In this document: positions 34,156 through 58,018 of the stretch, one piece after another
Layout of the letters: each line of letters starts with the position of its first letter
How positions within the stretch are numbered: the first letter of the stretch is position 1
From: an uncultured Elusimicrobia bacterium
GTDB lineage: Bacteria; Elusimicrobiota; Elusimicrobia; 2-01-FULL-59-12
Direction: 5' to 3'
Length of the DNA stretch: 64,000 nt
Assembly: GCA_963702895.1 (NCBI GenBank)
Contig: OY969767.1
Coordinates: 96,001 to 160,000, forward strand
Notes under the pieces: model-generated
Database searches by the model: none
Told to the model about the DNA's origin: nothing
Seen by the model: the letters and a program-made list of their open reading frames with translations, nothing else
Made by a program: the position numbers and the translations under genes

Positions 34156-35415
<1,260 letters not shown>

Positions 35416-35522
35416 AAGACCCCTATTGACAACACAGTTGCTCTCCCACCTGGCGGCGGGAGAGGGGACTAAAAAGTGCAGCCGGCTTAGACGGACAGAG
35501 CCGCTTTGCTGAAGATTCCGGG

Positions 35523-55436: not shown

Positions 55437-56174
55437 ATGCGTTACGGGAATGATCGCGGGCAGCTCCTCTTTCCGGTTCTGGGTGTTCTTTTCTTCTTTG
55501 GCATGTTCTGGGTGGCCTATGTTCTTTGGTGCAGGCAGCTCTACATCAAAATGCGCGTGGACGCGGTGGCTGATCTGGTCGCCTTGAGCGCCGCCAGGCA
55601 ACAAGCCCAGATGCTCAATGAGATCGGCACCCTCCAAATGCTGGAGAACATGCTTCTTCCGGAGATCAAGGGGTACGGGATCATGCCAATCAATTCGAAA
55701 TCGAGCTTTGAGGGGCTCAATGGAGTCCTCCGGTACACCAAAAAGAGCTACGGGCCGCGCGTGCTGGCCGTCGCGAACAGCATCGCGCGGCACAATGGAG
55801 GCGCTCGCGCTCTGCCTTCTCCCTATGGGGCGTCGCTCGCCGAGCTCGTCGATCCACGCCTGGGCCCGGAGCCCGTGATCGTGGTTTATTTCGCGGGCAG
55901 CTGGCCTGTGGAGGCGAAATATTATGAGGAAGCCTTCTATGCCCGGCAGTGGTCCCCCGGCAAGCTCAAGGCACAGCCGGATCATAAGAGCGACTGGCTG
56001 GTTTGTCTGGACAAGATCTGCAGCGAGGCTCGGGCGCGCTTGTGGCTCGACGTGGATGAACGCTCGGCGCTTCATAACGGCGGGTTCCCAAGCCGGCAAG
56101 CTTCCTGGCTGAGGAAGATCGGAATCCAGTGCTTTTACCCCCAATTCAACGCGCGGTTATGGCCAAAGCGATGA
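55437..56174 (+). CDS. Tad (TadG-like) pilus-associated protein
   Basis: RGQ + hydrophobic N-terminus; DAVADLVALSAA. Confidence 0.7.
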   Translation: MRYGNDRGQLLFPVLGVLFFFGMFWVAYVLWCRQLYIKMRVDAVADLVALSAARQQAQMLNEIGTLQMLENMLLPEIKGYGIMPINSKSSFEGLNGVLRYTKKSYGPRVLAVANSIARHNGGARALPSPYGASLAELVDPRLGPEPVIVVYFAGSWPVEAKYYEEAFYARQWSPGKLKAQPDHKSDWLVCLDKICSEARARLWLDVDERSALHNGGFPSRQASWLRKIGIQCFYPQFNARLWPKR

Positions 56175-56236
56175 TGAACCGGGAGTCTTCTGTCGGGCCG
56201 GTTTTGTCGTCTGTGGTCAGTGTTCTAGTTTGTGCC

Positions 56237-56300
56237 GTCATCCCGGCGGACGCCGGGATCCATCATTTTTGTCGAACAATGATAGACCCCGGCTTTCGCC
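56237..56300. repeat. Left part of a family B repeat interrupted by IS110 element 2 (right part 57549-57556)
   Basis: GACCCCGGCTTTCGCC + GGGGTGAC restores the hairpin. Confidence 0.88.
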
Positions 56301-56309
56301 TATTAGACT

Positions 56310-56490
56310 TTTCTCGAGTCTTTGTAGACTCTAGAAGAAGACACCGACAAGAATGGAATAAGTCTAACTTTCGCCAAGGTGAAAACCATACCCCGGTAAA
56401 GACCCCATTCTTTCGTGATCCAAAGCTAGATAGAAGTGATGTCATAAAAACCCTTAATAGGCAAAGCTCGCATCACGAATGTCGGCACTT
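56310..56490 (+). ncRNA. Predicted bridge RNA of IS110 element 2 (ends approximate)
   Basis: 5' hairpin GAGTCT/AGACTC; target loop with CTTTCGCC and ACCCCGG; donor loop with ATAGAAGT and TAATAGG. Confidence 0.85.
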
Positions 56491-56505
56491 ACAAAAAGGA
56501 GCCTT

Positions 56506-57531
56506 ATGAACCCACCTCTCCATTACATAGGCGTTGATATCGCCGATCAAACCTTCAGCGCAACACATTACAGCTCAGCCGAACAAAAGTATTCCAAACA
56601 TCAGACGCTCGCCAATACACCCGCCGGCTTTGAGGAATTCGAAGCCTGGTTTAAGAAACGCGGAGTCGATTCCACCAATACCGTGGTCTGCATGGAAGCC
56701 ACCGGTGTTTATGCGGAGCAGCTCTGCTACTGGCTCTGTGCCAAAGGCTATCCGGTGTCGGTGGAGGCGCCGCATAAAACCAAACGCGCCTTTCACCCCC
56801 TGGGAGCCAAAAGCGACCCCATCGATAGCCGCCAGCTCGCCGAATATGCCTGGCGCTTTTTCGATCAACTCGCGTTCTGGAAACCCTCGGAAGCCTTGAT
56901 CGAACAAGTCCGTGTTCTTCTGACGACGCGCGAGCAGCTGACCGGCCAGATGACCGCCAATCAAAATGCCTTGTCGGCCATCAGCCGGAAAGTCGTTCGC
57001 ACGATCCTCGCCGAACAAAGCTTCCTGGACACCATCCGCCATCTCAAAGAACAGATCAAAAAAATCGATCAGGCCTTGGATCAACTGATCTCAAACCACC
57101 CCACCATTGGCCCCATGGTGAGCTTGCTGCTCACCATCCCTGGGGTGGGCCGACTCTTGACGGCCCATTTGATGGTCATCAGCCAAGGCTTTACGCGATC
57201 CCTGGAACCCCGCCGCATCGCCTCGTATTTGGGCATGTGCCCACTCGAACACTCCAGCGGAACTTCCGTGCGCAAGAATGCAAGCTCTCGCGGGATCGGT
57301 CCGGACATCATCCGCAAGCTATTGCACCTGGCAGCCCGATCCCTTCGCACACATCATCAGCAGTTCAGGCACTACTTTGAAAGAAAAGTACAAGCCGGAA
57401 AAGCCAAACGCTTGGCGCTCAACAACATTGCCAACAAACTCTTGCGCATTATCTGTGCCGTACTGCGCACAAAGTCACCGTATCTTGCTGACTATAGGTC
57501 AGTCAATCCTCGGATCCTAAAAAATGCTTGA
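56506..57531 (+). CDS. IS110 family DEDD recombinase/transposase
   Basis: IGVDIA, MEATGVY, AKSDPIDS, TIPGVG, EHSSG; AAGGAG RBS. Confidence 0.95.
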   Translation: MNPPLHYIGVDIADQTFSATHYSSAEQKYSKHQTLANTPAGFEEFEAWFKKRGVDSTNTVVCMEATGVYAEQLCYWLCAKGYPVSVEAPHKTKRAFHPLGAKSDPIDSRQLAEYAWRFFDQLAFWKPSEALIEQVRVLLTTREQLTGQMTANQNALSAISRKVVRTILAEQSFLDTIRHLKEQIKKIDQALDQLISNHPTIGPMVSLLLTIPGVGRLLTAHLMVISQGFTRSLEPRRIASYLGMCPLEHSSGTSVRKNASSRGIGPDIIRKLLHLAARSLRTHHQQFRHYFERKVQAGKAKRLALNNIANKLLRIICAVLRTKSPYLADYRSVNPRILKNA

Positions 57532-57574
57532 CCGAGGTCATAGAAATCGGGGTGACGTCAATAGAAGATTTCGG

Positions 57575-58018
57575 ATGAATGCTCGCGGGCAGGCGCTTAT
57601 CGAAGCCGCGGCCTTGTTCCTGGCGCTGTCGGTCCTCTTGGGCGGGCTTGCCGGCTTCACTCAGTGGTTTGCCATCAGGCAAAAGCTGCTCCTGGCGGCC
57701 AAAGAGGGAGCCCTGCTCTACAGCTCCGGACATTGGCGGAGAACGGAAGTGGAAGCGCGCATGCGTAATTTTTTGGTCACGGGCGCCCCTGCCTTGAACC
57801 CGCGGGGGATCACCGTTTCGCTGCGCCCCTTGTCCGGTTTCATGGCCTGGCTCGGGCAATTTGACGAGTGCGTCGTGACCTACGCTCCTCCTGGGGGCTG
57901 GCACGCCCTGCTTGGCGCCGGCCGCTCCGTGTCCGAACGTTTTGTGGTGAAGCACGCGCCTCCCTATTGGTCCTCCCACGCGTCACGGGCAGGCCCGGCG
58001 GTCCGCTATGGCGAATAA
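57575..58018 (+). CDS. TadE-like pseudopilin
   Basis: MNARGQALIEAA, AAKEGA. Confidence 0.8.
   Translation: MNARGQALIEAAALFLALSVLLGGLAGFTQWFAIRQKLLLAAKEGALLYSSGHWRRTEVEARMRNFLVTGAPALNPRGITVSLRPLSGFMAWLGQFDECVVTYAPPGGWHALLGAGRSVSERFVVKHAPPYWSSHASRAGPAVRYGE

Follow-up and report, generated by a model that had tools for sequence, protein, structure and literature searches.

What directs an insertion sequence of the IS110 group, time after time, to one and the same small palindrome? The question is raised by a 1248-bp element at positions 56301-57548 of a 64,000-nucleotide stretch of DNA from an uncultured Elusimicrobia bacterium (assembly GCA_963702895.1, contig OY969767.1, positions 96,001 to 160,000; hereafter 'the window'), for which an initial annotation, made from the letters of the DNA, proposed that the non-coding left end encodes a readable bridge RNA programmed against that palindrome. 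We conclude, with a probability of roughly 0.88, that this is a recently active IS110-group insertion sequence working in the manner of IS621 from Escherichia coli; it is probably a well-preserved, active and bridge-RNA-guided element, aimed at a repeat that resembles the repetitive extragenic palindromes (REPs). The evidence that carries this conclusion lies in the anatomy of the element, in five identical copies that occupy identical sites, and in the covariation of RNA stems, guides and handshake bases among relatives.

The boundaries of the element, which follow from a comparison of flanks between copies, enclose an intact insertion sequence, and five copies of it are present in the genome searched (one contig of 2.72 Mb), all of them 100% identical over the full 1248 bp. 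All five lie in the same 14-nt site; none is at an unrelated position, which the initial annotation had named as a finding that would speak against its proposal. That site reads GCTTTCG-CC and then, beyond the point of insertion, GGGGT, followed by GAC; the excision of positions 56301-57548 restores GCTTTCGCCGGGGT within a REP-like palindrome, as had been claimed, and the flanks are alike in five of the five copies (CCGGCTTTCGCC on the left and GGGGTGACG on the right). The two junctions have only a single base (C) in common, and thus display no long target duplication.

The same 14-mer occurs intact and unoccupied at 37 positions in the genome, as against 0.04 expected from base composition, and all 42 exact sites fall in REP-like palindromes. 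Occupancy by the element extends to 5 of these 42 exact sites and to none of the 143 sites that differ from them at one position (49 sites) or two (94 sites), in keeping with the earlier claim that the element is programmed against this palindrome. The 1248-bp element accounts in this way for five interruptions of a single repeat family, with 37 more exact sites indicated.

The protein encoded within the element contains the Pfam domains PF01548 (5.2e-22, 78.7 bits) and PF02371 (7.4e-17, 62 bits), scores 193.5 bits with the NCBIfam model NF033542 ('IS110 family RNA-guided transposase'; cut-off 140), and is related, among solved structures, only to IS621 (8wt6, E = 3.5e-28) and ISCro4 (9t56, E = 1.7e-26). 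An alignment of 45 homologues shows no variation at residues D11, E64, D104, D107 and S251, which correspond to the DEDD residues and to S241 of IS621 (PMC11208158); an alignment made relative to the structure further places the serine of an SSG motif opposite the serine of ESG in IS621. By these domains and residues the protein is an IS110-family DEDD/Tnp recombinase, in which an N-terminal DEDD RuvC-like domain is joined to a C-terminal Tnp domain with its catalytic serine. The surrounding element inserts site-specifically and lacks long terminal inverted repeats; its left end is long and its right end short, and the 205 nt before the start codon, together with the 17 nt after the stop codon, identify its layout as that of the IS110 group and not of IS1111.

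Much of what can be said of the left end depends on comparison with related loci. Homologues of the recombinase number 1885 at E <= 1e-10 (the best of them 87%, 85% and 65% identical), nearly all on short metagenome contigs, and 80 loci holding relatives of 38-59% identity were fetched; a search of genome contigs with the single protein returned one distant cyanobacterial match and otherwise nothing usable, and among 401 genomes of the phylum a single relative was found outside the element's own genome, 31% identical and broken. The sequence upstream of the gene in the fetched relatives is alignable over its whole length, and contains both invariant blocks (AAGTCTA, AGACCC, and CT within a conserved AAGCTA) and two variable windows that flank each distal hairpin. 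The alignment used for RNA structure comprises 51 sequences from these loci; loci short of upstream sequence, eight skipped by an anchor rule and eight dropped by eye are left out of it, and one locus (L035), a duplicate of another (L027), was removed before alignment.

The left end of the element folds at -52.4 kcal/mol (z = -3.95), a value that none of 200 shuffles equals, into a structured RNA in which two internal loops are bounded by conserved closing stems; this two-loop bridge-RNA architecture, already recognized in the initial annotation, is borne out by the fold, the closing stems and covariation across the 51 sequences. The first loop, which corresponds to the target-binding loop (TBL), is closed by the pairing of GAATGG (56351-56) with CCATTC (56405-10), and its basal stem displays compensatory changes in 8 of 9 pairs, with 98.3% of cells paired; its distal hairpin, GGT-GAAA-ACC (56378-56387), retains at least three pairs in 40 of the 51 sequences. 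Helices 4 and 5, which belong to the donor-binding loop (DBL), likewise covary, and helix 1 (CCGACA/TGTCGG, the stem around both loops) is changed on both sides in 6 of 6 pairs, with the element's own row offset by one column in the alignment. When the loops are folded separately, they form the closing stems AAGAAUGG/CCAUUCUU and UUCGUGAU/AUCACGAA and the inner stems GUCU/AGAC and AGCU/AGCU.

Taken as a whole, a model of five helices and 28 pairs finds 91.0% of cells paired, as compared with 78.0% after shuffling and 30-49% after sliding of the partners, and 210 cells changed on both sides, as compared with 65 in shuffles and 25-44 with slid partners. None of 500 shuffles reaches the observed value on any measure, and both-side changes are found in 21 of the 28 pairs. 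RNAalifold, unaided, recovers the basal stem of the TBL with 8 compensatory pairs.

Within this framework, the guides of the TBL fit the target, the guides of the DBL fit the element's own ends, and the handshake bases are complementary to the partner DNA at its position 7; every motif that the initial annotation had placed across the element lies at the position given for it (Table 1). The left target guide (LTG) includes CTTTCGCC (56368-75), which is identical to the left flank (56293-300) at eight of eight positions, and in relatives the LTG matches its cognate flank at a mean of 5.82 of 9 positions as against 4.43 for non-cognate flanks, a value that none of 5000 permutations attains; the 1248-bp element itself scores 8. 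The right target guide (RTG) agrees with the restored site at 7 of 7 positions, and with the present right junction (TC+GGGGT) at 6 of 7. For the 44 loci with enough downstream sequence, which carry 14 distinct RTGs, its reverse complement is found exact in the cognate right flank of 37, as compared with 52 of 1274 non-cognate pairs in which the guides differ.

The two guides of the DBL behave in a similar fashion toward the ends of the element. The left donor guide (LDG) has a cognate mean of 6.13 of 7 in relatives versus 4.74, and the odd position in the element's own LDG is a G opposite a bottom-strand T (a wobble); the right donor guide (RDG) pairs with TC joined to TATTA at 6 of 7 positions, plus one G-T wobble at position 8, and varies together with the right donor arm in relatives (TCCAT with CATTA, TCTAT with TATTA, and TCTGT with TGTTA). 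The initial annotation had put forward guide/flank covariation as a check on its proposal, and guides do change together with flanks in the relatives; on these comparative grounds, the covariation in 44 metagenomic relatives confirms the proposed reading of the guides.

The handshake bases provide a further set of correspondences, in which each loop of the RNA is matched not to the DNA that it reads, but to its partner. The base that follows the RTG is Watson-Crick complementary to donor position 7 in 35 of 38 loci and to its own target in only 3 of 33, and the base that follows the RDG is complementary to target position 7 in 39 of 45 and to its own donor in 0 of 38. The 1248-bp element has the sole C:G handshake among 38 of G:C, which constitutes a compensatory change. 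The rule is the one described by Hiraizumi et al. (PMC11208158) and in the 2026 paper on excision (PMC13626964).

Table 1. Features of the 1248-bp element, its predicted bridge RNA and its target, in window coordinates
Feature	Position	Strand	Details
IS110-group insertion sequence	56301-57548	+	1248 bp; non-coding left end 205 nt, 17 nt after stop codon
Recombinase gene	56506-57531	+	341 aa; ribosome-binding site AAGGAG at 56496-56501
Left target arm and core	56292-56300	+	GCTTTCG (positions 1-7), CC (positions 8-9); loop and 3' arm of REP-like palindrome
Right target arm GGGGT, then GAC	57549-57556	+	Present in 5/5 copies
Right donor arm TATTA, then GAC	56301-56308	+	GAC is half of a short sub-terminal inverted repeat
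GTC, left donor arm ATAGAAA and core TC	57537-57548	+	GTC is the other half of the sub-terminal repeat
5' stem-loop of predicted RNA	56309-56338	+	-12.9 kcal/mol, z = -3.42; 0/200 shuffles as good
Stem around both loops, 5' half CCGACA	56344-56349	+	Partner TGTCGG at 56480-56485
Predicted target-binding loop (TBL)	56349-56412	+	Basal stem AAGAATGG/CCATTCTT, inner stem GUCU/AGAC, internal loop, distal hairpin
Predicted left target guide (LTG) ACTTTCGCC	56367-56375	+	Reads as target top strand, positions 1-9; 8/9 identical to flank
Predicted right target guide (RTG) ACCCCGG	56390-56396	+	Reverse complement of CC+GGGGT
TBL handshake dinucleotide UA	56397-56398	+	U pairs with donor position 7 (A)
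Predicted donor-binding loop (DBL)	56412-56479	+	Basal stem TTCGTGAT (56412-19)/ATCACGAA (56472-79), inner stem AGCU/AGCU, internal loop
Predicted left donor guide (LDG) ATAGAAGT	56430-56437	+	7/8 to right end ATAGAAAT (57540-47)
Predicted right donor guide (RDG) TAATAGG	56455-56461	+	Reverse complement of CC+TATTA
DBL handshake dinucleotide CA	56462-56463	+	C pairs with target position 7 (G)
-10-like hexamer TAGACT	56304-56309	+	Putative promoter half, complete only at circle junction
-35-like hexamer TTGACC	57528-57533	+	Right end; overlaps stop codon

Expression of such an RNA would be expected to depend on circularization of the element, at which point the two halves of a sigma-70-like promoter, as judged by consensus match, are rebuilt at the junction of the ends. 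The coordinates bear out the earlier statement that TTGACC and TAGACT would then stand 18 nt apart, and in relatives TAGACT is found in 35 of 35 for which the left end was located, with TTGACN at 17-18 nt across the junction in 36 of 38. A scan of the integrated copy found no sigma-70-like site. The circle junction is absent from the assembled genome, as would be expected in any case, and its absence is hence uninformative.

The mechanism that we propose follows published work on IS621 and on excision (PMC11208160, PMC11208158, PMC13626964), and its catalytic steps are taken over from the IS621 papers by analogy. Excision would join the right end of the element to its left end, giving a predicted circle junction of ATAGAAATC joined to TATTAGAC and creating the TTGACC-N18-TAGACT promoter, from which the left end would be transcribed into a bridge RNA of approximately 180 nt, with transcription probably continuing into the recombinase gene. 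The DBL would read the element's own junction (ATAGAAA-TC-TATTA), and the DEDD/serine recombinase would cut the top strands after position 9 and exchange them. The first handshake bases (U after the RTG, and C after the RDG) would thereupon pair across to position 7 of the partner DNA, driving the reaction forward.

At the core dinucleotide, neither target nor donor of the element has the CT of IS621: the target carries CC, the donor carries TC, and the clade as a whole carries TC. With sites read in a register of 7+2+5, all 38 right junctions and 44 of 45 left junctions have TC as their core, the sole CC being the left junction of the 1248-bp element itself, and position 9 is C in all 38 right and all 45 left junctions. 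A CT core, read as C then T across the left junction, was rejected, since the right junction reads C then G and the relatives fix the register with TC. We conclude that a CT core characterizes IS621 and the elements close to it, and not the whole family; IS621 itself is reported to work also with GT, AT and TT cores (PMC11208160). The term 'TC core' was not found in the bridge-recombinase literature that was searched, a negative from which it does not follow that no such core has been described.

The natural mismatch at position 8, where the target has C and the donor T, is read by C in the LTG, G in the RTG, U in the LDG and G in the RDG. The G of the RDG forms a wobble with the T of the donor; with the incoming target strand its pairing would be complete. 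Ten of the ten junctions of the five copies keep the top-strand base at this position, a result that leads us to reject a 2-nt staggered double-strand exchange in which the mismatch segregates at random. Retention of the top-strand base is predicted by the published cleavage pattern with repair, and equally by models in which only the top strand is transferred (preprints 10.1101/2025.10.25.684509 and 10.64898/2026.08.31.748434); a like pattern is found at positions 6-7 in every relative, and the junction bases thus add little beyond the published models.

A second regularity concerns the trinucleotides beside the arms. The left ends of relatives read CATTA, TATTA or TGTTA and then GAC, and GTC stands 5' of the left donor arm in 29 of 38. 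In the target, GAC lies directly 3' of the right arm at 35 of 38 loci and for 10 of 11 distinct right arms, as well as beside 36 of the 37 empty 14-mers in the genome; no guide segment is complementary to it, and the motif may be one that the protein recognizes. From these features one might define the clade as a distinct specificity class of bridge recombinase, with an obligatory C, in place of T, at core position 9 and a protein-read GAC in target and donor that resembles a protospacer-adjacent motif, in which the 1248-bp element provides a natural donor/target mismatch at core position 8 and the junctions fit the top-strand-only copy-out/paste-in route of the 2025-2026 preprints better than a symmetric double-strand exchange. 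We advance this definition tentatively, and consider it rather less probable than not.

The same observations lend themselves to the strongest of the competing explanations, namely that the recombinase also reads its target directly, through the hairpin shape of the palindrome, through GAC, or through both, such that the element would be less freely programmable than the initial annotation takes it to be. The GAC counts point in this direction, as does the location of every exact site in a REP-like palindrome; by inspection of the flanks by eye, the right arm in the targets of relatives also tends to fall on the 3' side of a hairpin (as in ATTGC...GCAAT and GTCTTCG...CGAAGAC), and a preprint on ISPpu10 describes a target stem-loop as a second determinant of specificity (10.64898/2026.03.19.712850). 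The argument consists of counts, however, and hairpins may merely typify abundant and harmless repeated sites, onto which drifting guides are retained, while GAC could descend from related repeat families in related hosts. Durrant et al. report no covariation signal in the target flanks of IS621-like elements (PMC11208160). Direct reading of the target is accordingly an idea that we regard as possible but doubtful.

Far less credible is the suggestion that the element is a fossil, in which the guide matches are relics and the copies were spread by recombination or duplication of the repeats. In its favour stand a search for RNA sequencing runs containing the element, which listed none, the missing distal hairpin of the DBL, and the near-identity of three of the five left flanks over approximately 45 nt. 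The remaining two left flanks differ, however, and the right flanks of all five copies diverge past 9 nt; moreover, the copies have remained identical throughout, the 341-aa reading frame is intact, and every catalytic residue is retained. Contigs of four DNA sequencing runs were also compared with the element, stretches without coverage carrying no weight: one run contains it, at an identity of at least 99%, with the flank of one of the genomic copies, and two runs from other studies contain near-identical pieces with other flanks, which again speaks against a fossil. One contig joint that skips 56298-57547 was considered as an empty site and rejected; it contains two extra letters, and six mismatches on its 23-nt side, and is read as a paralogous palindrome (a TTTTCACC variant).

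The last alternative, that the guide RNA is of the IS1111/seekRNA type and lies downstream of the gene, with the left-end matches incidental, might be suggested by the IS1111-like elements in the same genome, with their sub-terminal inverted repeats and short left ends, but is refuted by the anatomy of the element, in which a right end of 17 nt and a sub-terminal repeat of merely GTC/GAC stand against the long, guide-bearing right end and 7-17-bp sub-terminal inverted repeats of that type, and a conserved, covarying RNA lies upstream of the gene in 51 of 51 aligned sequences. Altogether the genome contains 13 IS110-family genes of four types, of which two (types B and D) are IS1111-like. The five elements of these two types (C1:416661, 646697, 671508, 2232926 and 2427493) combine a short left end with a right end of approximately 180 nt and bear sub-terminal inverted repeats (GCGTAATATGAAAGCG/CGCTTTCAGAAAAAG); several of them adjoin members of the same palindromic repeat families. 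Another IS110-group element, approximately 1198 bp long and present in three copies, occupies the window at about 34,280-35,480 (the C1:130480 region); it has a left end of approximately 200 nt and left flanks with a common GTGCCCTCACCCT, and is presumably the 'element 1' of the initial annotation.

Several observations weigh against our conclusion that the 1248-bp element is an active, bridge-RNA-guided insertion sequence. The transcription of its left end, the ends of the RNA, its activity and its circular intermediate are all inferred from sequence. The distal hairpin of the DBL, which retains at least three pairs in 48 of 51 sequences, is absent from the element, and a scan of positions 55800-58000 against Rfam matched no family at E values up to 10. 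The GGT-GAAA-ACC hairpin read by the initial annotation calls for a qualification: it forms when its segment is folded alone, and in minimum-energy folds of longer pieces GGUGAAA pairs with the LTG instead and so sequesters part of that guide. Matches between the LTG and its flank are imperfect, with 13 of 45 loci scoring 5 or less out of 9 and five of those scoring 3, and 7 of 44 loci have no exact match to the RTG 7-mer, the 1248-bp element being among them because of position 8. The relatives, furthermore, are kin, many of which have one target in common (TCGCAAT in 25 of 44), and the counts therefore overstate the independence of the observations.

A final point on the same side comes from a contig of metagenome run X2 with a near-identical copy, in which five consecutive positions of the LTG (56367-56371) and one further position (56332) are changed and the left flank is still CCGGCTTTCGCC. 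This contig is either a reprogrammed guide on a copy that was inserted by a sibling's RNA, or a chimera; with a depth of 2.4 and 66 identical bases between flank and guide, it may join two variants. As a refutation of guide-directed insertion it was set aside, because contigs assembled at short k can join two variants across 66 common bases.

Some additional features of the locus and of its closest relatives may be recorded here. The large repeat family of which the targeted palindrome is a member has many variants of loop and stem, for which genome-wide counts are 18 for GCTTCCGCC, 18 for the form ending in GGGAT, 19 for the form ending in GGAAT and 9 for GTTTTCACC; none of these variants holds the 1248-bp element. 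A second palindrome, ATCCCGGCGGACGCCGGGAT, followed by a T-rich run, occupies positions 56240-56268, its terminator-like part (56240-56259) lying just 5' of the element, where it could block read-through transcription into the left end. Of the fetched relatives, the closest two (L013 and L029, of 55-59% identity) have the same left donor arm as the element (ATAGAAA), together with a right donor arm TGTTA and the target TC-GCAAT; the guides of L029 show several mismatches to its own flank, such that it may be an off-target or decaying copy.

The initial annotation had described 'a new programmable recombinase with non-CT specificity'. Of this description, the non-CT specificity holds at the level of sequence; the novelty does not, given that the logic is that published for IS621, and 'programmable recombinase' is an inference put too strongly. 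The element is a new and clear-cut instance of a mechanism that was published in 2024; the mechanism itself is not new. Its interest lies in the finding of that logic intact in an uncultured bacterium, with guides, handshake bases, junction promoter and short sub-terminal repeat all in place, and in its status as an orthologue with a natural YC (pyrimidine-C) core and an RTG of 7 nt, which, if active, could bring further sites within reach of bridge recombinases. Should the protein prove to read the fixed GAC next to the right arm, design would be constrained in a way worth knowing, and this trinucleotide and the YC core are the only features that might repay work at the bench.

IS621 itself inserts in REPs. 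Work on REPs as targets of insertion sequences is included in the references of the papers that describe IS621 (Durrant et al. 2024, PMC11208160; Hiraizumi et al. 2024, PMC11208158). Both elements encode a protein of the same family and carry the RNA within a long left end; in both, each of two internal loops holds a left and a right guide, the 14-nt sites are read as 7+2+5, and handshake bases and a promoter at the circle junction are present. They differ in the core dinucleotide, which is TC or CC here and CT in IS621, such that the second base is C in place of a near-invariant T (PMC11208158), and in the sub-terminal repeat, which is GTC...GAC here and ATA/TAT in IS621-like elements (PMC11208160). 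Unlike IS621, the 1248-bp element has a natural RTG 7 nt long and a DBL devoid of a distal hairpin, and GAC also stands 3' of the right arm of its target, in contrast to the analysis of Durrant et al. (PMC11208160). The similarity of the two recombinases is distant (102 bits), and bridge RNAs have been predicted in 85.7% of IS110-group elements (PMC11208160).

Three further systems invite comparison. ISCro4 (IS622; 10.1101/2025.05.14.653916, PDB 9t56) has the family and architecture of the 1248-bp element, but is a close relative of IS621 with a CT core, whereas the element described here belongs to a different and mostly metagenomic clade. ISPpu10 and ISPpu9 of Pseudomonas putida (10.64898/2026.03.19.712850, PMC12288879) are, by their published description, IS110-family elements all of whose copies lie in one repeated, palindromic intergenic sequence, as is likewise the case here. 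The IS1111-type elements of the same genome, lastly, have the protein family and the host in common with the 1248-bp element and are also aimed at small repeats, but differ from it in their short left end, their long right end, their long sub-terminal inverted repeats, and a guide RNA located 3' of the gene.

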